Shown piece by piece: positions 2,671-25,837 of a stretch of DNA of 32,000 nt. The translations under genes and the position numbers were made by a program. The notes beneath the pieces were generated by a model. That model was not told the DNA's origin and did no database searches. It was given only the letters and a program-made list of their open reading frames with translations. Source of the DNA: Microcystis aeruginosa NIES-843. GTDB taxonomy: Bacteria; Cyanobacteriota; Cyanobacteriia; Cyanobacteriales; Microcystaceae. Each line of letters opens with the position of its first letter. Within the stretch, counting starts at the first letter, position 1. The stretch spans positions 2,100,001 to 2,132,000 of the forward strand of contig NC_010296.1 in the NCBI RefSeq assembly GCF_000010625.1, in the 5' to 3' direction.

Positions 2671-2770
2671 GGGAAATGGGGAAATGGGGAAATGGGGAAA
2701 TTTCAACTAAAACCCCAAAACCCCAAAACCCTAAAACCCCAAAACCCCAAAACCCTAAAACCCCAACCCC
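2671..2770. repeat. Two adjacent octamer arrays: (GGGGAAAT)~4 then (AAAACCCC/AAAACCCT)~8
   Basis: Read directly. The G-rich array spans 2671..2701. The C4A4-type array spans 2709..2770, which is (G4T4)n on the minus strand. The arrays sit between the NlpC/P60 stop codon and the RND start codon (2807). Confidence 0.9.
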
Positions 2771-2806
2771 TAACTCCTCACTCCTTACTCTCCCCCATAG
2801 GTAATC

Positions 2807-5800
2807 ATGTCAGAAAACATCTCCCTAAGCGGTCTGTCAATTCGTCGTCACATAGGAGTATTGATGTTAACTATAGCAGTTATCATCATCGGTCTTTTTT
2901 TTCTAAATCGTTTAGAAGTGGACTTGCTTCCTTCTATCACTTATCCCCGCATTAGTTTAAGGATGAATGTACCTGGAGTTTCCCCGGAAGTCATTCTCGA
3001 AGAAGTAACTAAACCCCTAGAAGAAGGAATGAGTGCCACCGAGGGAGTAGTGCAAGTTTATTCAGAAACTCGCGAGGGAAGGATGCGAGTAGATTTATTT
3101 TTTCAACCGGGGGGAGACTTAAATGTCGCTTTAAATGAAGCTACCGAAAGTTTTAATCGTGTCCGACAAAATTTACCCGATATTATTGAGGAACCGCGCT
3201 TAAACAAATTTGAACCCTCTCGTTTACCCGTCTATGAATTCGCTGTCGTTTCTGATACCCTACCCCTAAAAGATTTAAGATTATTTGCCGATGAAGAATT
3301 AGGGAGAGAATTAGGATTTGTGGAAGGAGTGGCAGTGGTGGACGTGATTGGGGGAGTTAGAGAAGAAATTCAAGTTAATATTGACCTGCAGCGATTACAA
3401 TCTTTAGGAGTGGGATTAAATCAGGTTTTAGACACCCTAAAAAGACGCAATCAGGACATCTCTGGGGGCCGACTAGAGGGAGAAACCGGGGAACCTTTAA
3501 CCCGTGCGGTGGGGAAATTTAAAAACGTAGCGGATATCCAAGATTTAGCACTGACCGATAGTAATAATCCCGAAGAAAAAATCTATCTGCGGGATGTGGC
3601 CAGAGTTATCGATGGGACAGAAGAACAAAGAATTTTTGTCACCCTAAATGGAAAAAATGCCGTGAGGGTTAGCGTCCAAAAACAACCGAATGCGAACACG
3701 ATTGCTGTGGTAGAAGGGGTCAAAAAACGCATTACAGAATTAAAAAAATCCGGGTTAATGACCGGGGGAATACAAGTCGTCCCCACTACTGATGAGTCTG
3801 TATTTATCCAAAACGCGGTTAATAACGTGGTTTCGTCGGGACTAGCGGGGACAATTCTAGCAGGACTGACTGTATTCGTCTTTCTCGGTTCCCTGCGACA
3901 GACTTTTATCATTACCCTAGCGATTCCTCTTTCTACCCTCGTCGCAATTATCTGTATGAAGTTATTCGGGTTATCGATAAATGTGTTTAGTTTGGGAGGA
4001 TTGGCCCTAGGGGTGGGTATCGTGGTGGATAATTCCATTGTCATGCTGGAAAATATTGCCCTCAAAGTTAATCAAAACCAAAATAAGCAAGATTTTTTAG
4101 AAATTGCCCGGAATAGCAGCCAAGAGGTAGAATCTGCTTTATTGGCCTCCACTGCGACTAATCTCGTCTCTATCCTGCCATTTTTACTACTGGGTGGTTT
4201 TATTTCCCTGCTGTTTAACGAGATTATCCTCACTATCAGTTTTGCTGTGGCTGCTTCTCTGTTGTGTGCGTTAACCGTTGTTCCCATGTTAGCCAGTCGT
4301 TTGTTAAATATGCAGGTTTCTAGTGGTATCCATCGATTTTGGCTCTTAAGAGTCTTTAGTCAACGTCTAGAAGGTTTAACCATCCTCTACGGTCGTTTTT
4401 TAGCTAAAATCATCCACTACAGAATACCTGTTATCCTGCTGGCCTTTTTAATTTTAGGGGGAAGTAGTTTCTATCTCTGGCAATATATCCCCCAGGAAGT
4501 CTTTAGTCGTATTCAAACTGGACAGGTGAACGTTTTTGCTCAATTTCCCCCGGGTACCAATTTAAATACTAACCGTCAGGTGATGCGGGAAGTAGAAAAG
4601 ATTTTATTATCACAACCGGAAACTGAGTATGTTTTTACTACCAGTGGCGGTTCTCTTTTTGGCACAACTACCAATGAAAATATTTTGCGCGCTTCTAGTA
4701 CGATTAATCTCAAAAAAGGCACTAATACAGAAGCATATATCGAACGGATGAGCAAAGCACTAGAGCAATTAAACCTCGTTAACGTGCGTTTGCGTCTCAC
4801 CCCCGGTCAAGTGCGCGGTATTATTCTTAATAACTCTCCCTCCGTTGGTGCTGATGTGGATGTGATGTTACAGGGACGCGATGGGAAAACTTTAGAGCAA
4901 GCTGGTGAAGAAATCCTCAGTATTCTCGATGAAAAAGTCCCTAGTGCGCGTTTTCGTGCCGATGCTGACCCCAGACAACCAGAAATTCAGATTAAACCCG
5001 ATTGGACCCGCTTAAATAGTTTGGGATTGAGTACCCTGGAAGTGGGACAAACGCTACGGACCGCTATTCAAGGATCGATCCCCACCCAACTGCAACGGGG
5101 AGAAAGATTAATCGATATCCGGGTGCAATTGGACCCCAACTCGCGGCAAAAAATTAGTGACATATCACAAATACCTATTTTTGTCAATAGGCAAGAAGAC
5201 TTAAAATTAGCAGATATAGCCCGGATTGAAGGGGGAAAAACCCCCGGAGTCATCCAGAGAATCAATCAGCGTCAAGTTTTTATTATTATCGGCAGTTTAG
5301 TCGAAGGGGCGAAATTAAGTGACGCACTCGCGGGAGTACAATCGCTTTTAAATTCCACTCCCTTACCCGATGGTATCAGCATTTTACCCAGTGCTGCTGC
5401 CACGTCTAATCAAGAAATTCAGGGTTCTTTGGGTTTATTAGCGGGTTTATCGGTATTTTTAGTCTTTGTAGTCATGGCCGTGCAGTATAACTCACTCATA
5501 GACCCTTTGGTGATTATGTTAACCGTTCCTTTGGCCCTAGCGGGGGGAATTTTCGGGCTATATTGGACTAAAACCCCGATTAATGCCATTGTCATCGTCG
5601 GGGTGGTTTTATTGGTGGGGATTGTGGTTAATAACGGGATTATTATGGTGGAATTAGCCAATCAATTGCGGCAAGAATTCGGTTTTACTCGACTACAAGC
5701 CATTTTAAAGGCCGCTCCCCAACGTTTACGACCGATTTTAATGACTACCGTGACCACGGTTTTAGGTTTATTTCCCCTCGCTTTAGGATTAGGAGAGGGG

Positions 5801-5925: not shown

Positions 5926-6115
5926 GGGAAGTGGGGAAGTGGGGTGTGGGGTGTGGGGTGTGGGGTGTAGGGTGTGGGGTGTAGGGTGTGGGGAAGTGGG
6001 GAGAATAAATAAAAAAAGTCTCCTATCTCCTATCTCCTATCTCCGGACTCCTATCTCCGGACTCCGGACTCCTGACTCCTATCTCCTGACTCCTGACTCG
6101 GAGAATACTGTCTCC
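5926..6115 (+). repeat. Composite low-complexity element, copy 1: G-rich heptamer arm, GGGGAGAATAAATAAAAA core, CT-rich arm
   Basis: It reads (GGGGAAGT)(GGGGTGT/GGGTGTA)n, then ggggagaataaataaaaaaagt, then (CTCCTAT/CTCCGGA/CTCCTGA)n, ending gactcggagaatactg. ORF 5924..6118 is a translation artefact of this element. Confidence 0.85.
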
Positions 6116-6136
6116 TAACCCAATGTTGGTCAAAGA

Positions 6137-6567: not shown

Positions 6568-6934
6568 AAGATAAGCAAAAATTATTGACTGACTCCAAAA
6601 ACTTGAGAATATTTAAATTAACATTTCGCAATATTTATAAATTCTTAAGAATTAATTGAGAAAAATTTTTATTTAACGACGATGTTATGAAGGTTACAGC
6701 GATTTGATAGAATTTCATAATGGGTTATTTTGTGCTTTTTTGGGCAGCAATGGTTGAAACCCTTGCCACACCTACAAGGTGATCCTAATTAAGACGGGTA
6801 AATCAGTCAATTTCACCCCTAACGATGATCTTTTTTTTGTGTAGTTTTATTGCAAAAAAAAAGTTTTTTTGACAAAAAGCACAAAGTATGATAGCACCCC
6901 AATGTATTTCTGGCTGCCAGTAGTTATTGTAGAG

Positions 6935-7100
6935 TGGGAGTTGGGGAGAAGGGTGTAGGGTGTGGGGTGTAGGGGAGAGGGAAGATGGGAGCGCCGGAGA
7001 TGGGAGATGGGAGCGCCGGAGAGGGGAGAATAAATAAAAATAATCTCCTGAATACTGACTCGGAGAATACTGAATCCTATCTCCTGAATCCTATCTCCTG
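6935..7100 (+). repeat. Composite low-complexity element, copy 2 (same family and orientation as 5926..6115)
   Basis: It has a G-rich arm (gggtgtagggtgtggggtgtagggg, ggagatgggagcgccggag x2). The core is gaggggagaataaataaaaataatctcct. The CT-rich arm again contains gactcggagaatactg. Confidence 0.85.
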
Positions 7101-8464
7101 ACTAGAAAATAGAGGCTGAAATAACGCAAATTCGTCGATCATCGAAAATTTGGGTCTGAAACCCCGTCGTTCTACGACGGCTTTACTGTTAAATATTAGA
7201 ACATTTACGAAATATATGCTAAAATGTGAGACATGGAAAAAGCCTATTCTTACCGATTTTACCCCACACCAGAACAAGAGTCGCTATTGCGGCGCACTTT
7301 GGGCTGTGTAAGATTAGTTTACAATAAAGCTCTCCATGTCAGAACACAAGCATGGTACGAAAGACAAGAAAGAGTAGGCTAAGCTCAAACTTCTTCAATG
7401 CTAACCGATTGGAAAAAGCAAGAAGAATTAGACTTTCTCAATGAAGTAAGCTGTGTACCTTTACAACAAGGGTTAAGACACCTACAAACAGCTTTTACTA
7501 ACTTCTTTGCTGGTCGTACTAAGTATCCTAACTTTAAGAAAAAACATCAGGGAGGAAGTGCCGAATTTACCAAATCTGCTTTTAAATTTAAAGACAAACA
7601 AATCTATTTAGCTAAATGCACAGAACCTTTACCTATTCGATGGTCAAGACAAATACCAGAAAGCTGTGAACCAAGCACAGTAACAGTCAGATTACATCCC
7701 TCAGGACGTTGGCATATTTCAATTAGATTTGATGACCCAACGATTAAGCCTTTACCAGTAACAGATAAAGCCATTGGAATTGACTTAGGAATTAGTAGCC
7801 TCGTGATTACCAGCGATGGCGATAAAGTGTCTAATCCCAAGCATTTTAAAAAGCATTATCGGAGACTGCGAAGAGCATCGAAAAATCTTTCTAGAAAACA
7901 GAAAAACTCAAAGAATCGAGAAAAGGCAAGAATCAAAGTAGCCAGAATTCACGCTCAAATCACGGATAGTAGAAAAGACCATTTACATAAGCTAACCACT
8001 CAATTAGTTCGTGAAAACCAAACGATTGTGGTTGAGAATTTAGCCGTCAAGAATATGGTCAAAAACCCGAAATTATCTCAGGCAATATCTGATGTAAGCT
8101 GGGGAGAAATTACCCGACAATTAGCCTATAAATGCCGTTGGTATGGAAGAAATTACATCGAAATAGATAGATGGTTTCCTAGCTCTAAAAGGTGTAGTAA
8201 TTGCGGGTATATTGCCCTTGAAAATGCCGTTAAATGTTCGAGAATGGGACTGTCCAGACTGTGGGACTCACCATGACCGAGATATTAACGCTAGTAAAAA
8301 TATTTTGGCCGCAGGGCTTGCGGTGTCAGTCTGTAGAGCGACCATAAGACCAGAACAGAGTAAATCTGTTAAGGCAGGTGCGGAACCCCGCAAGGGAAAG
8401 AAGCAGAAACCTAAATCGTGAGGTTTGGGAATCACCGTCCGTTTACGGCGGTGAGGATGTCAAG
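7100..8464 (+). mobile_element. Decayed TnpB-only IS200/IS605-family (IS1341-like) element
   Basis: It contains the tnpB pseudogene and a left-end hairpin ccgtcgt-tct-acgacgg (7164..7180). The right end has hairpin caccgtc-cgtttac-ggcggtg (8433..8453) and the terminus GTCAAG (8459..8464). There is no tnpA. The left boundary is uncertain; 7100 is where a 42-nt segment shared with 11204..11245 begins. Confidence 0.65.
7233..8421 (+). pseudogene. tnpB: tnpB (RNA-guided nuclease of IS200/IS605) inactivated by an in-frame stop and a frameshift
   Basis: It starts MEKAYSYRFYPTPEQESLLRRTLGCVRLVYN, a typical TnpB N-terminus. An in-frame TAA lies at 7380..7382, where a Tyr codon is expected (RVG*AQTSS). 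The frame shifts near 8215..8230 (CSNCGYI / [26 protein letters not shown]). RuvC motifs are still recognisable: IGIDLG, VVENL, HDRD. Confidence 0.85.
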
Positions 8465-8480: not shown

Positions 8481-9564
8481 AGTAGTCATGCAAAATTAAT
8501 TACCCAAATAAAAAATTAAGAAGTATAATACATAAAAAAACGAAGCAGCAGGAAAATACAATGAGATTGATTAGAGACCTAAACCCCGAGAGCCAGAAAA
8601 TGCTAGAGAGAATTTATCGAGCTAGTAAACATCATCAAGTAAGAGAGCGAGCGAAATGTATACTCTTAAGTTTTCAGGGAACCACGATAGAAGAATTGAG
8701 CGGAATATTTGGAGTTACGAGAAAGACCATCTATAATTGGTTGACGGACTGGGAAGATAGAAAACTAATTGGTTTTTATAATCGTCGAGGAAGAGGGAGA
8801 AAACCTAAATTGACAGAAGCACAAGGTCAACAAGTTATTGACTGGGTAAAAGAAGAACCGAAAAGCTTAAAAAAAATCCAGATAAAAATTGTAGAAGAAG
8901 GGAAATTAACCGTAAGCAAAGACAAGATAAAAAGACTCATAAAAAAAATCAACATGAGGTGGAAAAGGGTGAGAAGAGGGGTCGCCAAAACCCCTGATGA
9001 GTGGGAGCTTGAGGTCAAACTACCTATTTTAGAAGAACTAAAAAAACAGGAAAAAAGAGGAGAGATTGAGATAGGATATTTGGATGAAATGGGAGGGGAT
9101 TCAAAGCCTTGTATTCCTGACGCTTGGCAAGAAGAAAAAACCACGATAAAGTTACCACCAATTGAAGGTAAAAGACTAAATATTTTAGGAATAATGAAAC
9201 GAGATAATCAATTATTTTATGAGACACAGGTCGGAACGGTTACTAGCGAGATAGTTATTAATTTTCTGGATAAATATTGCCAAAATATACAGAAAAAAAC
9301 TGTCATAATAATTGACCAAGCTTCCATTCATACCAGCGAGGCATTTATGGAGAAACTTGAGGAATGGGAAAAGAAAAACTTGAAAATATTTTGGTTGCCC
9401 ACTTATTCACCTCATTTAAATTTAATTGAAATATTATGGAGATTTTTAAAATATGAATGGATTGAATTTAGCGCCTATAAAGACCGAAAGAGCCTCCTCG
9501 CTTACGTTAAAAAAGTGCTGGACAATTTTGGAGGCGAGTATGTAATTAATTTTGCCTAGGTACT
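8481..9564 (+). mobile_element. IS630-family insertion sequence (1084 bp), apparently intact
   Basis: The imperfect TIRs are agtagtcatgcaaaattaattac and its counterpart gtaattaattttgcctaggtact (19/23 match). TA target duplication is at 8479..8480 and 9565..9566. Removing the element restores ccgttgagTAtaagctacat, which matches the uninterrupted repeat at 11163..11203 except for one base. Confidence 0.85.
8561..9559 (+). CDS. IS630-family DDE transposase
   Basis: 332 aa. It has an N-terminal HTH region (TIEELSGIFGVTRKTIYNWL). The DDE-type motifs are YLDEMG, IIIDQASIH and YSPHLNLIEILWRFLK. Confidence 0.9.
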   Translation: MRLIRDLNPESQKMLERIYRASKHHQVRERAKCILLSFQGTTIEELSGIFGVTRKTIYNWLTDWEDRKLIGFYNRRGRGRKPKLTEAQGQQVIDWVKEEPKSLKKIQIKIVEEGKLTVSKDKIKRLIKKINMRWKRVRRGVAKTPDEWELEVKLPILEELKKQEKRGEIEIGYLDEMGGDSKPCIPDAWQEEKTTIKLPPIEGKRLNILGIMKRDNQLFYETQVGTVTSEIVINFLDKYCQNIQKKTVIIIDQASIHTSEAFMEKLEEWEKKNLKIFWLPTYSPHLNLIEILWRFLKYEWIEFSAYKDRKSLLAYVKKVLDNFGGEYVINFA

Positions 9565-11498: not shown

Positions 11499-14400
11499 CT
11501 AGGCGACTAGGGTAAAATCACTGGCGGTTAGCGCTGGACTCCCCACTAAAACTGCGAATTCGACTCCTGTTCCCAATCCGATCGCACTTCCGTTTTCATT
11601 GTAGAAAAGGCTGCCGCTGTTACTGCTATAGACGATAAAAGCGGCGCTGGTTTCGACGAGGGCATCATCTTCTACGATGGCGAAATCCGTGGCTTGACTA
11701 AAGCCATTGCCGACGGTGCTGGTTAGGGCGCTAAAGGTGGTTTTGCTCAGGCTCAATTTATCGGCGTTAGGGGTAAAGTCGGTCAGGGTATCAAGTCCGA
11801 TATCGCTGGCCATAAACGCTCTTCCCGTCAGATAACTAAATCGGTCATTACCCACGCCTCCAACAAGAATATCATCTGCTTGATTACCGGTCAGGATATC
11901 ATTGCCTGCACCCCCACTCAGGGTATCATTGCCTGGGCCGCCGTTAAGAGCGTTACTGAGACTATTACCCGTAATCCGGTCATTACCACTGCCTCCAAAA
12001 GCGTTTTCAATGACATTGACAGCGGATAATTTCAGGGTTAGATTGCCGGTAACAACAGTTTGGTTGCTGATGCTGCCCAAATTAAGGCGAATTGGATTGT
12101 TTGTACCAGAAAGGTTGAGGGTATCGATGCCTCCTGTCGTGGTTTCACTGATAGTGTCCAGACCTAAATAGCTATTGGCAGTAAAGACATAAGCATCATT
12201 TCCTGCTAACCCAGCCAGGGTATTGTTGGCACTATTGCCCGTGAGAACGTTATTGCCGGCGTTACCTGTGCCATTGATGGGGTTATCACCAATTAGTCGC
12301 AGGTTTTCTACTCCACTGGGTAAAGTGCGAGTTATATTACTTTGCCAAGTATCGGTGATGATAACTTCGCCTACTGAGTCAGCACTGAGGGTCGCATTGA
12401 TGGGATTGGAAAGGGTGACAGTAAAGGCTTCATCGACTTCGTTGAGGTTGTCATTGAGGATAGGAATGAAGATAGTCCCTATACTGGAATTGGCAGCAAT
12501 AGTGAGAGTCCCTGTTTGGTGAGTGTAATCACTGTTTGCAGTTGCGTTAATCGGAGTAGTGGTGTAGTTAACGCTGATGGATTTACTGCTAAGACTGCTG
12601 AGGCTGACGGTGAGGATCGCCCGGGTATCTTTGCCCTCAATCACGGTGAGGTCGTTGATAGAAAGGGCGGTAGCAGGCGCAGGGTCATCATTGAGAATGG
12701 TTCCCGTAACGGCGGTGGTTGTCCCAATTTTGTATCCTGTTCCAGGCGCTAGGGTTAAGGCGACCGTTTCATTACTTTCTACTGTGGCATCCGCCTTAGG
12801 GTCAACCGTGACGGTGGCGATGGCTGAATTCTGGGCAAAAGTAACGCTTGTGCCAATATTTGCGTAATCTGTCCCTTTGGTTGCTGTCCCACCGATGGTG
12901 TAGTTAACGGTTAAGGGATTGGTCAGGGAACCATCCCGGGTGAAGGTGTAAATGAGGTTGGTGGTTCCGTCTTCGTTGACGCTGAGCGGGTTAACCGCGA
13001 GGGTAATACTGGGAAGATCATCGTTGAGGATGGTTCCTGTGACGGCGGTGGTTGTACCAATGGTGTATCCTGTGCCACTCCCTAGGGTTATGTCAACGGT
13101 TTCATCACTTTCTAAGACAGTATCCGCTGTCGGATTGACAGTCACAGTAGCTGTGCTTGAATTGGCGGTAAAAGTAACGCTTGTGCCGATATTGCCATAA
13201 TCTGTCCCGTTAGTTGCCGTCCCACCGATGGTGTAGTTAACGGTTAAGGGATTGGTCAGGGAACCATCCCGGGTGAAGGTGTAAATTAGGTTAGGGGTTC
13301 CGTCTTCGTTGACGCTGGCAGGGTTAATAGCGAGGGTAATGTTGGGGAGAGCGGAAAAATAATTAAAGTAACTGCCCGTTAGACTTAATCCTGTGCGGTT
13401 TTGGAGAATCGCGATCAGTTCATCGGGTTCGCTGCCCGGTTTGTCGAGGTAAAGTTGAGTATCAGTACCCGATACCATCAGCAGATAGTTACTACTCGTT
13501 CCCCGTAGCTGAATAATGTCATCTGTGGGGTTGAAGTCGCTTATTTGAGCGTAATCGTTGTTACCTGCTAGGGTGCTATCGCCATCATCGTAACCCAGCC
13601 AACTGACATCTCCCAGGATAAAGCGATCGCGCCCTAACCCGCCGGTGAAAGAATCGATTTCTCCCCGTCCGGGGTTACTGCTATTGGGATCAACCCCGAT
13701 GAGGATGTCATTACCATTCCTGACATTAAGGGTGTCATTCCCCATCCCGCCGGTTATGATGTCGTCCCCATCGCCTGTATTGAGGGAATCATTAAAGTTA
13801 GTCCCCGTGATTTGGAAACGTTCGATATTGCTGAAAGTAACGTTGTCATAGTCACCATCATTTCGGCTGTAGGCATAAAAGTAGCCATTCCATCCCCCAA
13901 AACCATTCGGGTTGATAGAACTCCCAATTCCCCCAGAGTAAGTGGCGTTTCCTGCGTAGAGGTTACTGGAATAGTCAACGATTAAGAGGTCATTGCCGGC
14001 TCCCCCATCGACTGTATCCCTTCCACTTCCGGTGTTAATGGTGTCGTTCCCCGCACCGGTATTAATATTTTCGTAATTGCGTAGCCCTACGGAATAGTTG
14101 ATAGTATCGTTTCCTGTTCCCGTCCACAGATTTGCAAACACTTCCACATTTTTGACTACATTGCCGTTAGCTTGAGTTAAGGTGATGCCACTGTTATCGA
14201 CGGTTAAACCTGTAGTCTCACTACTCAAGTCAGCATACCGGATGACATCTGTTCCCGTACCCCCATCAATGTTAAAGACACCATAACCCCCTCGGTCAAA
14301 GGTGTCATTAAAATTAGTCCCCGTGATTTGGAAACGTTCGATATTGCTGAAAGTAACGTTGTCATAGTCACCATCATTTCGGCTGTAGGCATAAAAGTAG

Positions 14401-16745
14401 CCATTCCATCCCCCAAAACCATTCGGGTTGATAGAACTCCCAATTCCCCCAGAGTAAGTGGCGTTTCCTGCGTAGAGGTTACTGGAATAGTCAACGATTA
14501 AGAGGTCATTGCCGGCTCCCCCATCGACTGTATCCCTTCCACTTCCGGTGTTAATGGTGTCGTTCCCCGCACCGGTATTAATATTTTCGTAATTGCGTAG
14601 CCCTACGGAATAGTTGATAGTATCGTTTCCTGTTCCCGTCCACAGATTTGCAAACACCTCCACATTTTTGACCACATTACCATTAGCTTGAGTTAAGGTC
14701 ACACCACTGTTATCAACGGTTAAAGCAGCGGTCTCACTACCAAAGTCAGCATAGCGGATGATATCTGTCCCTGCGCCGCCATCAATGTTAAAGACTCCAT
14801 AACCGCCTCGGTCAAAAATGTCATTAACGTTAGTCCCCTTGATTTGGAAACGTTCGATATTGCTGAAGAAAACATGGTCAGAGTCACCATCGTTTCTGGT
14901 GTAGGCAGCAAATATGCCATTCCATCCTCCAGTGCCGTTAGGATTGATAGCATGACCCAAAAAACCGCTAGGGTAAGTCGTCGTTCCTGCATAGAGGTTA
15001 CTGGAATAGTCAACGATTAAGAGGTCATTGCCTTCTCCTCCATCGACCGTATCCTGTCCACGTCCGGGGTTGATGGTGTCATCCCCCGCACCCGTATTAA
15101 TATTTTCGTAATTGCGTAAGCCAACAGAATAGTTGATGGTGTCGTTTCCCGATCCCGTGCTTAGGTTAGCGAACACCTCCACATTTTTGACCACATTGCC
15201 ATTAGCTTGAGTTAAGGTGATGCCACTGTTATCAACGGTTAAACCTGTAGTCTCACTACTAAAGTCAGCATACCGGATGATATCTGTCCCTGCACCCCCA
15301 TCTATGTTAAAGACTCCATAACCGCCTCGGTCAAAAATGTCATTAACGTTAGTCCCCTTGATTTGGAAACGTTCGATATTGCTGAAGAAAACATGGTCAG
15401 AGTCACCATCGTTTCTGGTGTAGGCAGCAAATATGCCATTCCATCCTCCAGTGCCGTTAGGATTGATAGCATGACCCAAAAAACCGCTAGGGTAAGTCGT
15501 CGTTCCTGCATAGAGGTTACTGGAATAGTCAACGATTAAGAGGTCATTGCCTTCTCCTCCATCGACCGTATCCTGTCCACGTCCGGGGTTGATGGTGTCA
15601 TCCCCCGCACCCGTATTAATATTTTCGTAATTGCGTAAGCCAACAGAATAGTTGATGGTGTCGTTTCCCGATCCCGTGCTTAGGTTAGCGAACACCTCCA
15701 CATTTTTGACCACATTCCCGTTAGCTTGAGTTAAGGTGATGCCACTGTTATCAACGGTTAAACCTGCGGTCTCACTACCAAAGTCAGCATACCGGATGAT
15801 ATCTGTTCCTGCACCCCCATCTAGGTTAAAAACACCATAACCCCCTCGGTCAAAGGTGTCATTAACATTAGTCCCCTTGATTTGGAAACGTTCGATATTG
15901 GTAAAGTTAACAACGTCATAGTCACCATCGTTTCTGGTGTAGGCATACAAGTTACCATTCCATCCTCCATTACCGTTAGAACCAAGAGAACTCACAACAA
16001 TCCCACTAGGATAAGTAGCCGTTCCTGCATAGAGGTTACTGGAATAGTCAACGATTAAGAGGTCATTACCTTCCCCTCCATCGACCGCATCCTTTCCTCT
16101 TAAGGGACTGATCGTATCATCCCCCGCAGTTCCGATAATATTATCATTTCCATTAGTCCCCGTGAAATCCTGCATTTCTACGGCGACAATCTGCCCATTG
16201 AGGTTGATAACCCCCGTATCGTCTTCAGCCTTCAATGCCTGTAGCGTTTTAGCATCCAGACTTTCCCCCAACACTAACGCCGCAAAAATCGCTCCCTCAT
16301 CCCCGGGGCTATCTGATTCATTCAGTCGCCCATCAACGGCGTGTCCAATTTCTTCTAAAATAACTCTGGCGGTCAGCGAAGCTGCGCCCATATTACCAGC
16401 ATTTTGATTTAAAAATTCCTCAGAGATAAAAATCCTATCGAGGGCTGCGGCATAAGCCCCATTCGCCCCATTGAGGTGCGAGCGCAATCGCACTTCAATC
16501 CGGGGTAACTTACTAAAATCTCCTGCTGCCCACGCTGTCTGCAACTCAGAAACATTCACATCTTGCCCAAAAGCCAGTTCCATCTTGGCAGCGAACTCTG
16601 GACTCCGGGCAAAGTCCCGCAACCTTTCCGTGACTGAACTCCAAGCTGTCTCTAAGACGTAAAATAGACTGCCCCCAACTCTTGGCAGAGAATCGAGTAG
16701 GAGACCTTCATCGATAATTATGGGAACGAGCGTATTACTAGCCAT
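11499..16745 (-). CDS. Giant secreted RTX / Calx-beta repeat protein (~1748 aa), probable type I secretion substrate
   Basis: The likely start is ATG at 16745, preceded by TAGGAG; the ORF track opens at a TTG at 16772. Domain layout:
- A conserved N-terminal domain with LEEIGHAVDG.
- About 4.6 units of 172-173 aa, rich in GGxGxD-type nonapeptides.
- Three Calx-beta-like modules (VNYTIGGTATNGTDY and VNYTTTPINATANSDY; about 12360..13350).
- C-terminal RTX nonapeptides (GGSGNDRITG, GGPGNDTLSGGAGNDILTG).
- No N-terminal signal peptide, and an acidic/hydrophobic C-terminus ending DFTLVA. Confidence 0.9.
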   Translation of the reverse strand: MASNTLVPIIIDEGLLLDSLPRVGGSLFYVLETAWSSVTERLRDFARSPEFAAKMELAFGQDVNVSELQTAWAAGDFSKLPRIEVRLRSHLNGANGAYAAALDRIFISEEFLNQNAGNMGAASLTARVILEEIGHAVDGRLNESDSPGDEGAIFAALVLGESLDAKTLQALKAEDDTGVINLNGQIVAVEMQDFTGTNGNDNIIGTAGDDTISPLRGKDAVDGGEGNDLLIVDYSSNLYAGTATYPSGIVVSSLGSNGNGGWNGNLYAYTRNDGDYDVVNFTNIERFQIKGTNVNDTFDRGGYGVFNLDGGAGTDIIRYADFGSETAGLTVDNSGITLTQANGNVVKNVEVFANLSTGSGNDTINYSVGLRNYENINTGAGDDTINPGRGQDTVDGGEGNDLLIVDYSSNLYAGTTTYPSGFLGHAINPNGTGGWNGIFAAYTRNDGDSDHVFFSNIERFQIKGTNVNDIFDRGGYGVFNIDGGAGTDIIRYADFSSETTGLTVDNSGITLTQANGNVVKNVEVFANLSTGSGNDTINYSVGLRNYENINTGAGDDTINPGRGQDTVDGGEGNDLLIVDYSSNLYAGTTTYPSGFLGHAINPNGTGGWNGIFAAYTRNDGDSDHVFFSNIERFQIKGTNVNDIFDRGGYGVFNIDGGAGTDIIRYADFGSETAALTVDNSGVTLTQANGNVVKNVEVFANLWTGTGNDTINYSVGLRNYENINTGAGNDTINTGSGRDTVDGGAGNDLLIVDYSSNLYAGNATYSGGIGSSINPNGFGGWNGYFYAYSRNDGDYDNVTFSNIERFQITGTNFNDTFDRGGYGVFNIDGGTGTDVIRYADLSSETTGLTVDNSGITLTQANGNVVKNVEVFANLWTGTGNDTINYSVGLRNYENINTGAGNDTINTGSGRDTVDGGAGNDLLIVDYSSNLYAGNATYSGGIGSSINPNGFGGWNGYFYAYSRNDGDYDNVTFSNIERFQITGTNFNDSLNTGDGDDIITGGMGNDTLNVRNGNDILIGVDPNSSNPGRGEIDSFTGGLGRDRFILGDVSWLGYDDGDSTLAGNNDYAQISDFNPTDDIIQLRGTSSNYLLMVSGTDTQLYLDKPGSEPDELIAILQNRTGLSLTGSYFNYFSALPNITLAINPASVNEDGTPNLIYTFTRDGSLTNPLTVNYTIGGTATNGTDYGNIGTSVTFTANSSTATVTVNPTADTVLESDETVDITLGSGTGYTIGTTTAVTGTILNDDLPSITLAVNPLSVNEDGTTNLIYTFTRDGSLTNPLTVNYTIGGTATKGTDYANIGTSVTFAQNSAIATVTVDPKADATVESNETVALTLAPGTGYKIGTTTAVTGTILNDDPAPATALSINDLTVIEGKDTRAILTVSLSSLSSKSISVNYTTTPINATANSDYTHQTGTLTIAANSSIGTIFIPILNDNLNEVDEAFTVTLSNPINATLSADSVGEVIITDTWQSNITRTLPSGVENLRLIGDNPINGTGNAGNNVLTGNSANNTLAGLAGNDAYVFTANSYLGLDTISETTTGGIDTLNLSGTNNPIRLNLGSISNQTVVTGNLTLKLSAVNVIENAFGGSGNDRITGNSLSNALNGGPGNDTLSGGAGNDILTGNQADDILVGGVGNDRFSYLTGRAFMASDIGLDTLTDFTPNADKLSLSKTTFSALTSTVGNGFSQATDFAIVEDDALVETSAAFIVYSSNSGSLFYNENGSAIGLGTGVEFAVLVGSPALTASDFTLVA
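13789..16160 (-). repeat. Intragenic tandem repeat, 516-519 bp unit, about 4.6 copies
   Basis: The anchor ctggaatagtcaacgattaagaggtcatt recurs at 13966, 14482, 15001, 15520 and 16039. Perfect identity blocks: 13798..14141 equals 14314..14657 (344 bp), and 14785..15197 equals 15304..15716 (413 bp). Confidence 0.95.
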
Positions 16746-19617: not shown

Positions 19618-19912
19618 TTTTGTAGTTTTTTATAATACGCTTTGTATTTCTAGTCTAACCGGATTTGGTCTGATTTTTACAGGAGTCATTTCAGCCGACA
19701 GTAATCAGTCAAGGGAAAAGACAGCACTGTTACTCGCACCTAATACCTGTCACTTAACAATCTCGCCAATCTGTTGACTATCTAAATTACTCGTTAAGAC
19801 TGCACTGGAGTGCCGGAGTTGGGAGCAGGGAGAGGAAGTTCGAGCATTTGTACTAAAATTTCTCATACGCAGTTTAAATTCAGTACAGCTTATAATATTA
19901 GGTCGAGTTCTA

Positions 19913-19950
19913 CTGATAACTGATAACTGATAACTGATAACTGATAACTG
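19913..19950. repeat. Heptamer tandem array (CTGATAA)x5.4, STRR-type
   Basis: Read directly. In the psb27 sense it reads (CAGTTAT)n and begins 3 nt after the psb27 stop codon. Confidence 0.95.
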
Positions 19951-20882: not shown

Positions 20883-22247
20883 CTAGGGTGAAATGGGCAG
20901 TTTGACGGTAAAGCTTGTTCCCTTATCCACTTGGCTATCTAGGGCGATTTCGCCACGGTGGAGTTCGACGCATTTTTTAACCACTGCTAACCCCAATCCC
21001 GTGCCGATAATATTTTCCACATTCTGACCCCGATAAAAGGGTTCATAGATCTTACCTCTATCTTCCTCGGCAATGCCGATACCGTGATCCCGGACTTGAA
21101 AAACAATGCGATCGCTATCTTTCCACAAAATCAAACTAATCCCTGCTCCTGTGGGGGAATATTTAATCGCATTTAAGAGTAAATTACTTAAAATCGAGTA
21201 GAGCAGTTTCTCATCTAGATAAGGACGGATCATCAATCCCTGACTGACAAATTTAATCGGCGTATTATTTTTATTGATAAATTGAAAATCCTCGACCAAA
21301 TTTAAGCAAAAAGCTTCAATATCGAGCGGCTCTAACTGACAACTGAGATTGCCAGATTCTGCCCTTGTTAAAATCAAAATATCTGTTAAAAATTGATTCA
21401 TTAGCTTGACAGAAGACTGGATTCTATATAGGTTTTTTCTGCTCGACTGATCTGCATCTTTTAAGCCATTTTCTAATAACTGCGAGGCGGAAAGAATCAC
21501 GGTTAAAGGAGTTCGGAACTCATGGGATATCATAGAAAAAAGCTGAATTTTTAGATCGGAAAGTTCTTTTTCCTGTAGTAATAACCGGTGAATTTCATCA
21601 CTTTTTTGTCGCCGTTTCTCTTGCCAAAAAATCAAAAAATAAACTCCGCAAATAATCCCAAAACTGATAAAAGTTCCCAGTAAACCCAAAAGAGAATTTT
21701 CGCTGATACTATCCCTAGAACTAGCGATGCTACTTCTTAAATTCCTTTTCTGACTAGCTTGTAAATAGGTAAGAAGATTTTGAAACTTATCCCGGACTTC
21801 GACACTTTTAACCGTGATTGCATCTTGAGAAATATCATCGGATCGATCGGATTTATAGGTAGCGATCGATTGCTCGAATAGGACAATTCGCCGATACATT
21901 AAATCCCCGATCTCAGTCACCATTTCCCGCTCGAAATCCGTGCCGTTTTCTAATTGTTTAGCCAGGAGTTGCCAGTTAGATTGCATCAAAGCGATCGCCC
22001 GATGATGACGGCTTAATTCCCTAGGGCTGCCAGTTTTGACATAATCCCGTCTTCCCGATTCGGCCACCGCCATGTTAGCGTAAAGATTAGCGAGATTATC
22101 GATGATCTCGTAGGTAACTTCCACCTCGGCAGCGCGCTGACGCAGGGCGAGGGTATTGCGATAGGAAACTAGGCTAATAGTTCCCATCAATAAGACAGTT
22201 AGCCCGAAACCTCCCGCGATCCATTTTCCTTGTTTGAGCCAATTCAT
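20883..22247 (-). CDS. Sensor histidine kinase with periplasmic CHASE3-like domain
   Basis: The first TM helix is WIAGGFGLTVLLMGTISLV. The CHASE3-like motif reads VEVTYEIIDNLANLYANMAVAESGRRDYVKTG. A second TM helix follows, then the HisKA H-box (SMISHEFRTPLTVI). HATPase_c N, G1 and G2 boxes are present (LLLNAIKYSP, DHGIGI, GTGLGLAVV). The probable start is the ATG at 22247. Confidence 0.9.
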   Translation of the reverse strand: MNWLKQGKWIAGGFGLTVLLMGTISLVSYRNTLALRQRAAEVEVTYEIIDNLANLYANMAVAESGRRDYVKTGSPRELSRHHRAIALMQSNWQLLAKQLENGTDFEREMVTEIGDLMYRRIVLFEQSIATYKSDRSDDISQDAITVKSVEVRDKFQNLLTYLQASQKRNLRSSIASSRDSISENSLLGLLGTFISFGIICGVYFLIFWQEKRRQKSDEIHRLLLQEKELSDLKIQLFSMISHEFRTPLTVILSASQLLENGLKDADQSSRKNLYRIQSSVKLMNQFLTDILILTRAESGNLSCQLEPLDIEAFCLNLVEDFQFINKNNTPIKFVSQGLMIRPYLDEKLLYSILSNLLLNAIKYSPTGAGISLILWKDSDRIVFQVRDHGIGIAEEDRGKIYEPFYRGQNVENIIGTGLGLAVVKKCVELHRGEIALDSQVDKGTSFTVKLPISP

Positions 22248-22301
22248 CAGCAGCAAACCGAAGCTATTTCCAGCTTACTCTATCTAAATGGAGCAAGAGG
22301 A

Positions 22302-22351
22302 CTCCCGTTAAATTTCTCCTTAATTAAAAATATACCAGAAATTAACGGGAG
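22302..22351. promoter_or_regulatory. Long inverted repeat in the kinase upstream region
   Basis: The arms are ctcccgttaaatttct and agaaattaacgggag, about 15 bp each with one bulged A, separated by a 19-nt AT-rich loop. It lies 55 nt upstream of the kinase start codon. It could be an operator, a 5'-UTR hairpin or the IS left-end hairpin. Confidence 0.35.
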
Positions 22352-22376
22352 ATGAATTGCCCCCAGAATCTAAACT

Positions 22377-23716
22377 AACGCGACAGCGTTTCCTAATAAG
22401 GAAAGGCTTGATTCTCAAGGTATGTATGAGCTTGACATATTTAAGCGGTAAGTGTTATACTGAAAAGATAGCACAGATGGGGTCAGGCTGATGTTAAATG
22501 TTTTAAAAGTGAGAATATACCCAAACAAAAAACAGGAACTAGCCTTAGCTAAAAACTTTGGTTGCGTCCGTTTTGTTTGGAATTACTACTTAAATAAAAC
22601 TAACAATCAGTACCTAGAGACTGGTAAAGGAATGACCTACTGTGACATGGCAAAAGACCTTACCCAACTCAAGAAACAGCTGGATTTTGAATGGTTAGCT
22701 GAGGCTACTGCCGCTACCTTGCAGCAATCATTGAAAAACTTAGAATCTGCTTTTAAGAACTTCTTCTCAAAAAGAACAAAATTCCCTAAATTTAAAAGTA
22801 AGCACAAAAAACAATCAATCCGTTATCCTGAAAGTTGTTCAATTAGAAATAAGGGAATTAAGCTACCTAAATTAGGGGTTGTAAAAGCTAAGATTTCTCA
22901 AGTAATAAATGGTAAGATTAAATCCGTAACTGTTTCTAAAACCAGTACAGATAAATATTTTGCTGCCATCTTGTTTGAGATGGATGACTCAACAACCATT
23001 GAAAAACTAAAAATATCAGGGATAGACCTAGGTTTATCTTCTTTAGTTACGGTTTTTGATGGTGAAACAACCTACAAGATTGACCCAATCAAACCTACCA
23101 GAAAATATGCTAAACGTTTAAAGCGGAGACAACAAGCATTGTCTCGTAAAGCCAAGGGGTCTAATAATCGCCAAAAAGCCATTAAGGAGGTAGCCAAGGT
23201 TCACGAAAAGATAGCAAATACTAGACAGGATTTTCTTCATAAACTCTCCAGAAAGTTATGCGATGAAAACCAAATCGTTGTAGCCGAGAATCTGAATATT
23301 AAAGGGTTAGCAAGGACTAAATTAGCCAAATCAATACATGACGCTGGTTTTGGTATGTTGCTTAATTTCTTGGACTACAAGCTAAAAAGAGAGGGAGGAA
23401 AACTTGTAGAAGTTGACAGGTTTTATCCGAGTACAAAACTCTGTTCTTGCTGTGGATTTAAAAATGATTTATTGACTCTCAGTATTCGTGAATGGATTTG
23501 TCCAGAATGTAAGACGCAGCACGATAGAGATGAAAACGCCGCCAAGAATGTAAGGGAAGAAGGTATGAGAATACTGTCAACAAATACCGATGGACAGTCG
23601 GAATTTCAAGCTTGGGGAGAAACTGTAAGACTCGTTGGTACTTGTACCGAAAAGCGGGTTTGGGGTGAATCAAGAATCCCCCGTCACAGCGTCAGCTTAA
23701 CGGCGGGAGTGTCAAG
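22377..23716 (+). mobile_element. TnpB-only IS200/IS605-family (IS1341-like) element, coding capacity intact
   Basis: The right end has hairpin cccgtc...ggcggg (23680..23707) and terminus GTCAAG (23711..23716), as in the copy at 8433..8464. There is no tnpA. The left boundary is not resolved. Candidates are the small hairpin aacgc-gaca-gcgtt (22377..22390), a TTGAT at 22407..22411, or as far left as the inverted repeat at 22302. Confidence 0.6.
22432..22461 (+). promoter_or_regulatory. Sigma70-type promoter candidate for tnpB
   Basis: TTGACA (22432..22437), an 18-nt spacer, then TATACT (22456..22461). It sits 30 nt upstream of the tnpB ATG. Confidence 0.4.
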
Positions 23717-23750
23717 TCTAGACCATGCGAATTTTAGTAGTAGAAGATGA
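22491..23750 (+). CDS. tnpB: TnpB RNA-guided endonuclease (IS200/IS605 OrfB)
   Basis: 419 aa. The N-terminus reads LKVRIYPNKKQELALAKNFGCVRFVWN. The RuvC triad is ISGIDLG, VVAENLNIKG and HDRDENAAKN, and the zinc finger is CSCCG...CPECK. The frame has no stop inside the element; it ends 34 nt past the right end, inside the regulator gene. Confidence 0.9.
   Translation: MLNVLKVRIYPNKKQELALAKNFGCVRFVWNYYLNKTNNQYLETGKGMTYCDMAKDLTQLKKQLDFEWLAEATAATLQQSLKNLESAFKNFFSKRTKFPKFKSKHKKQSIRYPESCSIRNKGIKLPKLGVVKAKISQVINGKIKSVTVSKTSTDKYFAAILFEMDDSTTIEKLKISGIDLGLSSLVTVFDGETTYKIDPIKPTRKYAKRLKRRQQALSRKAKGSNNRQKAIKEVAKVHEKIANTRQDFLHKLSRKLCDENQIVVAENLNIKGLARTKLAKSIHDAGFGMLLNFLDYKLKREGGKLVEVDRFYPSTKLCSCCGFKNDLLTLSIREWICPECKTQHDRDENAAKNVREEGMRILSTNTDGQSEFQAWGETVRLVGTCTEKRVWGESRIPRHSVSLTAGVSSLDHANFSSRR
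23560..23732 (+). ncRNA. Candidate omegaRNA/reRNA of the intact TnpB element (scaffold to 23716 plus about 16 nt of flanking guide)
   Basis: The position follows from TnpB biology. Elements conserved with the decayed copy are a TAAGAC box (ctgtaagac / ccataagac), the terminal hairpin and GTCAAG. The 5' end and the guide length are guesses. Confidence 0.45.
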
Positions 23751-24417
23751 TATGCAACTAGCCGAGATTTTGCGAGAGGCCTTGAGCGAGCGACAATACG
23801 TTGTCGATGTGGCTAGAGACGGAGAAGAAGGCTGGAATTGGCTAGAATTAGGCAAATATGACCTTTTAGTTCTCGATGTCACCCTGCCCAAATTAAGCGG
23901 AACTTTGCTCTGTCAACGTCTGCGACGAGCGGAATCCCATCATCCCGTCTCTGCTAATGCCACCGTTCCCGTCCTATTATTAACCGCAAGGGATACGGTA
24001 ATCGATAAAATCGACGGATTAGACGCAGGGGCCGATGATTATGTCACTAAACCCTTCGATTTGGGCGAATTAATGGCGCGGATTCGGGCCTTGATCCGGC
24101 GTGGCAGCAGCACCAGCAGTGTTTTATTATCTTGGGGGGGGTTGCAGTTAAATCCCAGTACCCACGAGGCCAGTTATAACGGTCAACTTCTTTCCCTCAC
24201 CCCCAAGGAATTCGCTCTCTTAGAATTACTTGTTACCCATGGGCGCCGGGTCTTAAGTCGATCGGGTATTATTGAGCGAGTTTGGTCTTTGGACGATTCT
24301 CCGGCCGAGGAAACCGTTACTTCCCATATTCGCGGTCTTCGTCACAAGCTAAAATCCCTCGGTGCGCCGGAAGACTTTATTGAAACCGTTCACGGTCTTG
24401 GTTATCGTTTAAAGTAA
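23725..24417 (+). CDS. OmpR/PhoB-family response regulator
   Basis: The receiver domain reads MRILVVEDD, DLLVLDVTLPKLSG and LLLTARD, with K in VTKPF. The C-terminal winged-helix region reads LTPKEFALLELLVTHGRRVLSR...VTSHIRGLRHKL...IETVHGLGYRL. Confidence 0.92.
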   Translation: MRILVVEDDMQLAEILREALSERQYVVDVARDGEEGWNWLELGKYDLLVLDVTLPKLSGTLLCQRLRRAESHHPVSANATVPVLLLTARDTVIDKIDGLDAGADDYVTKPFDLGELMARIRALIRRGSSTSSVLLSWGGLQLNPSTHEASYNGQLLSLTPKEFALLELLVTHGRRVLSRSGIIERVWSLDDSPAEETVTSHIRGLRHKLKSLGAPEDFIETVHGLGYRLK

Positions 24418-24448
24418 TATCTGCCTTGGGACAGTAGACAAAATCATT

Positions 24449-24491
24449 TCTGCACGAAATCTGCACGAAGTTTGCAGAGGGTTTCCATAAT
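24449..24491 (+). promoter_or_regulatory. Eleven-bp periodic direct repeats plus a -10-like hexamer (candidate OmpR-family binding site/promoter)
   Basis: The repeats are TCTGCACGAAA (24449), TCTGCACGAAG (24460) and TTTGCAGAGGG (24471), followed by CATAAT at 24486..24491. The site is 32 nt after the regulator stop codon and about 100 nt before ORF 24588. Confidence 0.35.
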
Positions 24492-24587
24492 CACCCGTTA
24501 AATTAGAAAGTTAGACAGGTGCAGGGCTTCTAGACAATCAGAGCGGTCAAACCTGTGACTCTCCTCTCCTAAAAGGGGCTGCTTGAA

Positions 24588-24890
24588 ATGATTTATACGC
24601 GATTTGACTATCACGGCTGGCAGATTGAATTGATCCTAGAAATGCAGGGTTATTCTTTTCAATGTTGGCGAGTGGATGGCAGGGAAGGAATTAGCGATTG
24701 CCTAGTTTATGCCACCTCTGAACAAGCTTTAGCGGCTGCCCGACACAGAGCGGATCTAGAGTCCGCTTGTCTTGCCCTACTGCGATTTCTCAATGATATC
24801 GGCGGCCGGAATTATTACCTCACCCGCGATGATCGCGATGCTCTTAGCCGGTCAATTTTAGAATATGCCCGTCTAGGTGATGTTTTCTAA
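24588..24890 (+). CDS. Hypothetical protein (100 aa)
   Basis: It is an ATG-initiated ORF whose composition resembles the neighbouring genes. I recognise no motif in it. Confidence 0.55.
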   Translation: MIYTRFDYHGWQIELILEMQGYSFQCWRVDGREGISDCLVYATSEQALAAARHRADLESACLALLRFLNDIGGRNYYLTRDDRDALSRSILEYARLGDVF

Positions 24891-24962: not shown

Positions 24963-25109
24963 TCAGGCCACTTTCGGTAATAGAATCGTGACAGTGGTTC
25001 CATTACCGGGGATATTAGCAATTTCGATCGAGCCTCCGTGTAGTTCCACGCATTTCTGCACTACCACCAAACCCAAGCCGGTGCCGGCGATGTGACGGAC
25101 ATTTTTATA
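24963..25109 (-). pseudogene. 3' remnant of a second histidine kinase (HATPase_c G2-box to stop)
   Basis: My own translation of the minus strand gives YKNVRHIAGTGLGLVVVQKCVELHGGSIEIANIPGNGTTVTILLPKVA*. It parallels the C-terminus of the intact kinase (NIIGTGLGLAVVKKCVELHRGEIALDS...GTSFTVKLP). The frame is cut at the MITE boundary (25110), and the sequence beyond the MITE is not kinase-like. Confidence 0.75.
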
Positions 25110-25326
25110 TAGGGTTTGCGGCAAAAAGTTTTTCCTGGGGGCAGGGTGTGGGGTGTGGGGTGTGGGGTGTGGGGTTTTACCAGTTTTGAGGTGGCCAATT
25201 ACCTAATTTTCAGGGAAAAAGTGCCTAAATTTCCCCCCGATCACTCCCAGAGCCAGTACTTTTTGATTGACAAAAGGTCTAAAAGTCTTACCCAACAAGG
25301 TTTTTAGATTTATTCAGCCAGCCCTA
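25110..25326 (+). mobile_element. MITE-like repeat, copy B (full length, 217 bp)
   Basis: The ends are tagggtttgcgg and cagccagcccta, an imperfect TIR (9/12). It is flanked by TATA on both sides (25106..25109 and 25327..25330). It is collinear with copy A at 11299..11469. ORF 25116..25307 is an artefact. Confidence 0.75.
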
Positions 25327-25402: not shown

Positions 25403-25837
25403 ATGGTTGTCACTGTTAATAATTCCCTGACACTAAGGGAATTTCTGCAATTACCAGAAACTAAACCCCGCAAGGAATTTATTGACGGTCAAATTATTCC
25501 TAAACCCATGCCCCAGGGTAAACATAGCACTATTCAAGGTGATTTAGTTCCAGCTATTAACGCCAGTCTAAAACCCCAACGAATTGCCCGTGCTTATCCC
25601 GAATTGCGTTGTACTTTTGGCAGTCGTTCTCTAGTTCCTGATGTTTCAGTTTTTCTCTGGGAAAATATTCCCCGCGATGCCGATGGAAAAGTATTAAATA
25701 ATTTTGCGATCGCTCCTGACTGGCTGATTGAAATTCTCTCTCCCGATCAAAATCAGACTAAATCAGTTATCAGTTATCAGTTATCAGTTATCAGTTATCA
25801 GTTATCAGATGTAAGTTTTAAGTTAAAACTCTTCTAG
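25403..25837 (+). pseudogene. Uma2-family (DUF820) putative endonuclease, C-terminal third replaced by a heptamer array
   Basis: The Uma2 core is typical up to its truncation: EFLQLPETKP, GQIIPKPMPQGKHSTIQ, PELRCTFGSRSLVPDVSVF, IAPDWLIEILSPDQ. The frame then runs into (TCAGTTA)6, giving SVISYQLSVISYQLS. It ends without the usual C-terminal beta-strands. Confidence 0.7.
25763..25808. repeat. Heptamer tandem array (TCAGTTA)x6.5, STRR-type
   Basis: Read directly. It is the reverse complement of the family at 19913..19950. Confidence 0.95.

Follow-up and report, generated by a model that had tools for sequence, protein, structure and literature searches.

A tnpA-Less IS200/IS605-Family TnpB Element in the Divergent Control Region of a Microcystis aeruginosa Two-Component System

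Overview

The window analyzed in this work is a stretch of 32,000 nucleotides from Microcystis aeruginosa NIES-843 (contig NC_010296.1, positions 2,100,001 to 2,132,000). It contains a TnpB element of the IS200/IS605 insertion sequence (IS) family, which lacks the transposase gene tnpA and lies between two divergent genes of a two-component system, encoding a histidine kinase and an OmpR-type (RppA-like) response regulator. The insertion was mapped to the nucleotide by comparison of empty and occupied sites. The analysis established the identity and boundaries of the element, its target motif, the structure of its omegaRNA, its polymorphism among strains, and a frameshift in tnpB of the window copy. 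We consider it probable that this is a selfish, polymorphic element residing in the control region of the two-component system, with the regulator read through from the element or from DNA further upstream. Such a reading requires no new mechanism: insertions of IS elements in promoter regions, guides derived from flanking DNA, and tnpB-only derivatives are already known. Our literature searches turned up neither a study devoted to this locus nor any account of TnpB read-through into host genes.

Element Ends and Target Site

Orthologous loci were defined as contigs encoding exactly the same regulator protein, and 10 genome places are shown. In seven of them (L002-4, L006, L007, L009, and L010), the start codons of the kinase and the regulator are 45 bp apart, as opposed to 1476-1477 bp in occupied loci. 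The empty spacer reads CAT|CAGGAGTTAACCGACGCTATTTCCAGCTTACTCTAT^GTCTAGACC|ATG, with the junction ...CTCTAT^GTCTAGACC, while the occupied junctions are CTCTAT|CTAAATGG... and ...GTGTCAA|GTCTAGACC; not a single base is duplicated between the two states. According to this comparison, the insertion left 9 nt of native DNA 5' of the regulator ATG and 36 nt 5' of the kinase ATG. A first-pass annotation, made from the letters of the window, had suggested comparing orthologues in order to recover the empty site and the transposon-associated motif (TAM) at the left junction, and both were recovered, as the 45-bp spacer and TCTAT.

Related copies were sought in a scan with one genome per species, which yielded 59 loci from many cyanobacterial genera. 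In more than 35 copies, homology (blastn) reaches from nt 1 to nt 1432 of the element and no further, with unrelated DNA beyond the right end, and because it ends precisely at both termini, the element is beyond chance. The termini read CTAAATGGAG.../...GAGTGTCAA. The right one (23707..23715) is invariant in all of the more than 35 copies, and at the left one, the first 27 nt, CT(A/T)AATGGAGCAAGAGGACTCCCGTTA, are conserved in distant copies. Judged by the empty sites and this conserved terminus, the left end lies at 22284, 93 nt further left than the previously annotated position 22377. G23716, formerly counted as the last base of the terminus (GTCAAG), belongs to the flank, as it varies between G, C, and A in empty and occupied alleles alike; the terminus is GTCAA|G, and its distance from the regulator ATG is 9 nt (GTCTAGACC) rather than 8 nt. 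Of 14 distinct family sites, 12 have TCTAT as the pentanucleotide 5' of the left end; the remaining two have CCTAT and GTTAT, respectively.

Subterminal hairpins were found at both ends (Table 1). That of the right end was already recognized as 23680..23707; the hairpin is real, with slightly wider limits, and it shows compensatory changes across genera (GTCA/TGAC, GCTA/TAGC, GTTA/TAAC). One locus, L001, was considered as a 449-bp deletion derivative and dropped, the missing part being an assembly gap of Ns. In a Crocosphaera copy (L021), a second partial right end of about 87 nt, ending in GAGTGTCAA, occurs at 2729..2828 of the locus, 99 nt downstream of the first; it has the appearance of a right end, with the 3' part of the omegaRNA, that was duplicated in tandem.

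Table 1. Positions of the element, its parts, and the adjacent genes in the window.
Feature	Position	Strand	Details
Whole IS200/IS605-family element without tnpA	22284..23715	+	1432 bp, between T22283 and G23716; defined by empty sites and related copies
Target/TAM pentanucleotide TCTAT	22279..22283	+	Abuts the left end on its 5' side
Left-end subterminal hairpin	22302..22351	+	Arms CTCCCGTTAA / TTAACGGGAG; DNA fold -12.4 kcal/mol, z -4.7; same arms in Nostocales copies
Promoter-like site of tnpB	22432..22461	+	TTGACA-18-TATACT with TG extension; 11/12 consensus matches
tnpB open reading frame (ORF), window allele	22491..23750	+	419 aa; residues 391-419 (last 29 codons) frameshifted; last 12 codons and stop outside the element
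omegaRNA scaffold	23576..23715	+	140 nt, six helices; overlaps the 3' end of tnpB, ends exactly at the right end
GGG in place of canonical CT	23662..23664	+	Net +1; removes the in-element stop; in omegaRNA helix 3, one pair is lost and a bulge gained
Right-end subterminal hairpin, also last omegaRNA helix	23677..23708	+	Followed by terminus GAGTGTCAA; covariation and DNA fold
TAA, canonical tnpB stop of 402-aa alleles	23698..23700	+	Out of frame in the window allele
Predicted guide-supplying flank	23716..23735	+	GTCTAGACCATGCGAATTTT; regulator start codon at guide positions 10-12; family homology and covariance model end at 23715
CHASE3-HisKA-HATPase histidine kinase	20883..22247	-	ATG at 22247, divergent from the regulator, 36 nt from the left end of the element
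OmpR-type (RppA-like) response regulator	23725..24417	+	Pfam Response_reg and Trans_reg_C

Family Identity and the Absence of tnpA

In Nostoc, Fischerella, Anabaena, Calothrix, and other genera, copies of the element measure 1822-1847 bp. The full-length relatives (L020, L023, L032, and others) carry an IS200-type Y1 tnpA gene, divergent from tnpB and located between the left end and tnpB; in L023, for example, it occupies 1032..1496 and matches NF033573 at 123.8 bits. The window copy shares with the IS200/IS605 family the insertion 3' of a pentanucleotide, the lack of target duplication and of terminal inverted repeats, and the subterminal hairpins at both ends; a further family hallmark, the Y1 (HUH) transposase TnpA, is absent from it. 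Because the full-length relatives have tnpA and the Microcystis copies examined are without it, the window element is identified, from its sequence, as a tnpA-less, non-autonomous derivative of a cyanobacterial IS200/IS605 insertion sequence. In Microcystis PCC 7806, 14-16 mobile copies of a 444-bp IS200/605 tnpA are reported (PMC11448079). Copies of this type could serve as a source of putatively cognate TnpA in trans.

TnpB and an Allele-Specific Frameshift

The Pfam domains HTH_OrfB_IS605, OrfB_IS605, and Cas12f1-like_TNB were all found in the TnpB protein above their cutoffs, and its residues 6-359 match the ISDra2 TnpB structures 8bf8, 8ex9, and 8h1j at E 5e-75. The RuvC triad D179, E266, and D347 aligns to D191, E278, and D361 of ISDra2, and the zinc-finger cysteines are C318, C321, C337, and C340. 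Among NCBIfam models, guided_TnpB scores 357.5 bits (cutoff 100) and IS200_TnpB 382 bits, which is under its strict cutoff of 425. The Pfam and ISDra2 comparisons thus bear out the ORF with the D/E/D triad and zinc finger described at first pass.

The C-terminus of the window protein is unusual for the family, in which TnpB has about 400-403 residues, ends in ...KKRVSxKQESPVTA..., and has its stop codon 14-22 nt before the right end. In the window allele, a frameshift swaps the last 12 residues for 29 others, and the frame runs to a TGA at 23748-50, 26 nt into the regulator gene. The canonical sequence GGGTTTCTGTGAATC is present at the identical insertion site in six other loci (L008, L016, L017, L084, L086, and L089). 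In five of these, the whole of tnpB is readable (L084 is partial) and encodes a 402-aa protein whose stop lies 15 nt before the right end and 25 nt upstream of the regulator ATG. The frameshifted sequence GGGTTTGGGGTGAATC occurs in the window and in L005 and L011-15, among which L013 and L015 are Logan contigs (SRR20702430 and SRR6470681). The earlier description of a tnpB frame with no stop inside the element, ending 26 nt into the regulator, therefore holds for the window allele and not for the element as such; the missing stop is best understood, from this comparison of alleles, as a derived accident. Since the overlap arises from an allele-specific frameshift, hypotheses based on it fail for the other carriers, including the proposal that the regulator is expressed by translational coupling from tnpB.

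The GGGG variant, which frameshifts tnpB in the window, was also observed in copies at other genomic sites (L019, L053, and L058), all of them with a broken tnpB. Its presence at several sites points either to gene conversion among copies or to a sub-lineage of the element. As the change lies outside the ISDra2-homologous core (residues 6-359), the nuclease function of the 419-aa TnpB may be retained.

The omegaRNA and Its Predicted Guide

The omegaRNA structure was derived from an alignment of the last ~150 nt of 28 copies. Its 38 base pairs are paired in 92.4% of alignment cells, compared with 39-51% when partners are slid by 1-3 columns, and compensatory changes were detected in 19 of them. 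The covariation score is 0.381 as against at most 0.10 in the slid controls, and none of 500 shuffles reached the observed values on four of five measures. A covariance model (R1) built from 25 copies, all of them non-Microcystis, gave one strong match in the window, at 23576..23715 on the + strand, full length, with 133.5 bits and E 2.4e-36. A search of the tnpB 3' region with an omegaRNA covariance model, as advised in the first-pass annotation, thus finds a scaffold ending at 23715. No match of R1 was obtained on empty loci. The Rfam scan of 22000..24600 (E<=1) returned no omegaRNA family; its sole match was a chance-level ssnA (19.5 bits vs a gathering threshold of 37.3) on the - strand within tnpB. 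Folding of 23576..23760 as a single RNA sequence, in which the GGGG variant would pair with the guide, was uninformative (z -0.24).

It is known that TnpB systems take their guide from the DNA immediately past the right end and follow a TAM rule (Karvelis 2021, PMC8612924), that TnpB processes its own mRNA (PMC10278001), and that it mediates homing at the donor joint (Meers et al., PMC10055086). By analogy, the guide of the window copy would be the translation-initiation region of the regulator. The predicted sequence is GTCTAGACCATGCGAA(TTTT), and the guide covers positions -9..+7 of the regulator. This supports the origin of the guide suggested previously and corrects its sequence, which starts with GTCTAGACC and reads GTCTAGACCATGCGAA.... 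The guide sequence occurs once in the window, beside the right end, and is preceded there by GTCAA rather than by a TAM; self-targeting is for this reason not expected. In keeping with the homing model of Meers et al., the TnpB-omegaRNA complex is predicted to act on the empty allele (TCTAT + GTCTAGACC...).

The Regulator and Its Transcription

Three genes span about 22200..24420 of the window according to the ORF list and Pfam: the - strand kinase, the TnpB ORF, and the OmpR-type regulator. The RppA model aligns to the regulator from residue 1 with 217 bits, which is under the model cutoff of 250. An in-frame TAG precedes the start codon at 23719-21, the RppA and Response_reg models begin at residue 1-3, and the identical start is called in all orthologues; on these grounds, the start codon at 23725 may be regarded as secure. 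The annotated ATG of the regulator was upheld in this way, with orthologues using the same codon throughout, as was the divergent kinase starting at 22247, by the ORF list, Pfam, and the orthologues.

The promoter proposed upstream of tnpB (TTGACA at 22432, TATACT at 22461) is likewise borne out. No other strong sigma-70-like match occurs in the region, and its TTGACA is kept in eight of nine aligned Microcystis copies (as ATTGACA in L024). Four terminator-like sites were predicted, all on the - strand and none between this promoter and the regulator; three of them are hairpins near the left end, at 22346..22390. No + strand TAnnnT was found in 23573..23724, and the final 150 nt of the element are free of -10-like hexamers. 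Because neither a + strand -10-like hexamer near the right end nor a + strand terminator is present, regulator mRNA in carriers most likely arises by read-through from the element promoter or from further upstream. Candidates for promoters facing the kinase from the left end (e.g., TGGTATATT, - strand, 22329..22337) are -10-like hexamers and were not counted as evidence.

The native control region was examined in the empty alleles. When the empty site was scanned against the promoter consensus, no + strand sigma-70 match reached 9/12, and no Shine-Dalgarno-like motif was found in the 45-bp spacer. The spacer contains one + strand TAnnnT (TACTCT), whose final T is lost in the commoner TCCAT allele; a hand-picked native promoter, TTAACC-16-TACTCT, was dropped for this reason. 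The view that the insertion cut the regulator off from its native promoter and ribosome-binding site (RBS) is consequently supported for the promoter, in so far as native upstream DNA is displaced by 1432 bp, and not for the RBS, as the spacer is without a Shine-Dalgarno motif and the 9 nt next to the ATG are unchanged. Expression of the regulator from the IS, earlier argued to be obligatory, is plausible and not forced: the displaced native DNA has the same orientation as tnpB, and transcripts from it could also read through the element.

Distribution of the Insertion in Microcystis

The element was present at 3 of the 10 genome places and on 3 of 15 metagenome contigs, the other 12 of which were empty. 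Carriers (L005, L008, L016, L017, L086, and L089) were compared with window positions 20883..24417; L005 is from GCA_000312265.1, L016 from FBCC-A1114, and L017 from T1-4, while L002 (CP089094.1) and L003 (CP020771.1) represent empty strains. Synonymous divergence between carrier pairs is lowest in tnpB (0.004-0.025), higher in the regulator (0.03-0.08), and highest in the kinase (0.08-0.14), so that the flanks are 4-25 times more diverged synonymously than tnpB (Fisher p 1e-3 to 2e-8). The carriers stand on several flank haplotypes that are also seen among empty alleles, even less than 100 bp from the junctions. Measured by these divergences, the insertion allele is younger than its flank haplotypes. 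Its entry into diverged backgrounds at the same nucleotide could have resulted from ordinary recombination, repeated insertion, or TnpB-guided homing.

The kinase gene is highly diverse among strains, with synonymous differences (pS) of 0.08-0.14 and nonsynonymous differences (pN) of about 0.02, far above the adjacent regulator, in which pN among carriers is 0-0.004. The regulator is full length in every carrier examined, and no stop was found in any examined kinase sequence.

At the insertion point, 10 of the 12 empty metagenome alleles have TCCAT|C instead of TCTAT|G. Empty alleles with TCCAT|C were observed in L010, L077-L083, L085, L087, and L088. This variant would be expected to spoil both the transposase target and the TAM, and it might protect the site from insertion as well as from cleavage by TnpB.

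Proposed Mechanism and Alternative Explanations

We propose that the element moved by single-strand 'peel-and-paste' transposition with TnpA supplied in trans, and that it would have inserted 3' of TCTAT within the 45-bp divergent control region of the RppA-like system, co-oriented with the regulator, to persist as a selfish, population-polymorphic allele. The omegaRNA would be transcribed from the element promoter across the right end, taking GTCTAGACCATGCGAA... as its guide, and the TnpB-omegaRNA complex would cut the empty allele, favoring retention and spread of the insertion. Regulator mRNA would consist of transcripts from the element promoter and/or the displaced native upstream region that cross the terminator-less right end, and entry of the tnpB frame into the regulator gene would be a by-product of the allele-specific +1 frameshift. 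The transposition route, the use of the guide, homing, and read-through expression of the regulator are what we infer from the data described above.

Several points weigh against this reading. No cognate tnpA turned up in the window, and the gene is missing from the copy there as well as from all Microcystis loci examined. A native promoter of the regulator could not be placed, the sole TAnnnT of the spacer being absent from the TCCAT allele. Both the production of the omegaRNA and transcriptional read-through into the regulator are deduced from sequence. The purifying selection seen in the regulator largely predates the insertion and, as the IS is younger than the flank haplotypes, it is only a weak sign of expression. 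Finally, the activity of the window copy is uncertain in view of its altered TnpB C-terminus and disrupted omegaRNA: R1 scores 148.6-152.7 bits on canonical alleles of the same site and about 15 bits lower on the window, where one pair is lost and a bulge is added.

The alternative that survives best, although we regard it as unlikely, is that the insertion acts as a knock-down or knock-out. Without their shared 45-bp control region, the two genes would form a weak or silent system in carriers, and the allele would persist as nearly neutral or by TnpB homing or hitch-hiking. The short remnants of native upstream DNA (9 nt for the regulator and 36 nt for the kinase) agree with this, as does the emptiness of most sampled genomes; the - strand terminator-like hairpins at 22346..22390 would additionally hinder transcription from the element toward the kinase. 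In PCC 7806, intergenic IS1-like and IS1634 insertions are reported to have lowered downstream expression (PMC11448079). Against such silencing, a strong co-oriented promoter without a terminator stands upstream of the regulator, and the genes are intact with a regulator pN of at most 0.004, an argument weakened by the youth of the insertion relative to the divergence of its flanks.

The selfish-element reading could be extended to a natural RNA-guided homing ('gene-drive') allele combined with escape through TCCAT and with gating of regulator translation by TnpB; taken jointly, these propositions seem improbable to us. If homing did occur, cutting of empty TCTAT alleles would have copied the element into diverged Microcystis haplotypes at the same nucleotide, and most of the remaining empty alleles would have escaped via the TCCAT target variant. 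Regulator mRNA would then be a 3' continuation of the omegaRNA transcript, and binding or processing by TnpB could gate translation of the regulator.

A functional overlap of tnpB and the regulator, with coupled translation and a two-component output dependent on the IS by design, is very improbable. The window-allele frame does cross the regulator ATG and stop 26 nt inside the gene, and the last 150 nt of the element contain no independent promoter-like sequence; against this, the frameshift is allele-specific, and six other carriers are canonical with an equally intact regulator. Moreover, ribosomes do not re-initiate efficiently at a start codon 26 nt behind the stop. Least credible of all is a domesticated TldR-like system in which TnpB-omegaRNA represses the two-component system at the regulator start: TnpB-derived RNA-guided repressors exist (PMC10705468) and the guide covers -9..+7 of the regulator, but TldRs are nuclease-dead whereas the RuvC triad is intact here, GTCAA and not the TCTAT TAM lies 5' of the target in carriers, and the element has intact transposon ends, many copies elsewhere, and presence/absence polymorphism.

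Whichever way the regulator is transcribed, the locus gives exact ends, the TAM TCTAT, a scaffold supported by covariation, and an autonomous parent together with empty-site alleles. It is a convenient system in a bloom-forming organism for asking whether TnpB homing shapes wild IS polymorphism, and what effect an IS605 element located 9 nt from a start codon has on a two-component system.

Other Features of the Window

Elsewhere in the window, a degraded TnpB element from another subfamily was noticed. It consists of two ORF fragments (7398..8276 and 8212..8421) and a weak match to the omegaRNA model at 8294..8463 (14.7 bits). Next to it comes a 332-aa ORF (8561..9559), transposase-like by eye alone. 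Downstream of the regulator, a 53-aa ORF at 24963..25124 on the - strand resembles a histidine kinase C-terminus (HATPase_c remnant); such fragments, of 42-68 aa, occur in 5 of 10 related loci (L005, L006, L009, L010; unconfirmed in others).

Several repeats are also present. Arrays of 7-nt units (ACTGATA; inverted CAGTTAT) at 19912..19950 and 25762..25816 are perfect inverted repeats 5.8 kb apart that bracket the two-component region. The right one lies inside a 144-aa ORF (25403..25837), and an ORF at the matching position in related loci has the Pfam domain Uma2. Further 7-nt-unit arrays, G-rich (GGGGTGT) and C-rich (CTCCTGA / CTCCTAT), are found at 5932..6117, 6920..7111, and 25127..25198. 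Long tandem repeats at 13789..16128 and 12685..13317, with units of 516-519 bp (4-5 copies, 80-100% identical) and 333 bp, probably encode a repetitive surface-type protein.

Comparison with Known Systems

The closest well-described relative is ISDra2 of Deinococcus radiodurans. In addition to the homology of TnpB, with the same triad and zinc finger (residues 6-359, E 5e-75), the two elements have in common a pentanucleotide target, which lies 5' of the insertion and also serves as the TAM, no target duplication, subterminal hairpins at both ends, and an omegaRNA scaffold that overlaps the 3' end of tnpB and stops at the right end, so that the guide comes from the flank. They differ in the target/TAM, which is TCTAT in Microcystis and TTGAT in ISDra2. 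Furthermore, the Microcystis copy is without tnpA, its omegaRNA matches no Rfam family, and the C-terminus of the window TnpB is frameshifted.

With IS1341-type (tnpB-only) and other non-autonomous IS605 derivatives, the element shares a lone tnpB between IS605-type ends and the need for TnpA in trans. Unlike these, it has an autonomous parent (1822-1847 bp, with divergent tnpA) that could be recognized directly in copies from other genera of cyanobacteria. The expression-rewiring IS elements described in Microcystis (PMC11448079) are similarly intergenic and sit directly in front of a host gene, and the genome abounds in mobile IS200/605, IS1, and ISNCY elements; reduced downstream expression is reported there for IS1-like and IS1634 insertions, whereas the window locus is known from sequence. 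In common with TldR, the element has a predicted RNA guide complementary to the 5' region of a host gene. In contrast to TldR, its nuclease residues and transposon ends are intact, no TAM adjoins the target, and it is mobile and polymorphic, which places it outside that group.

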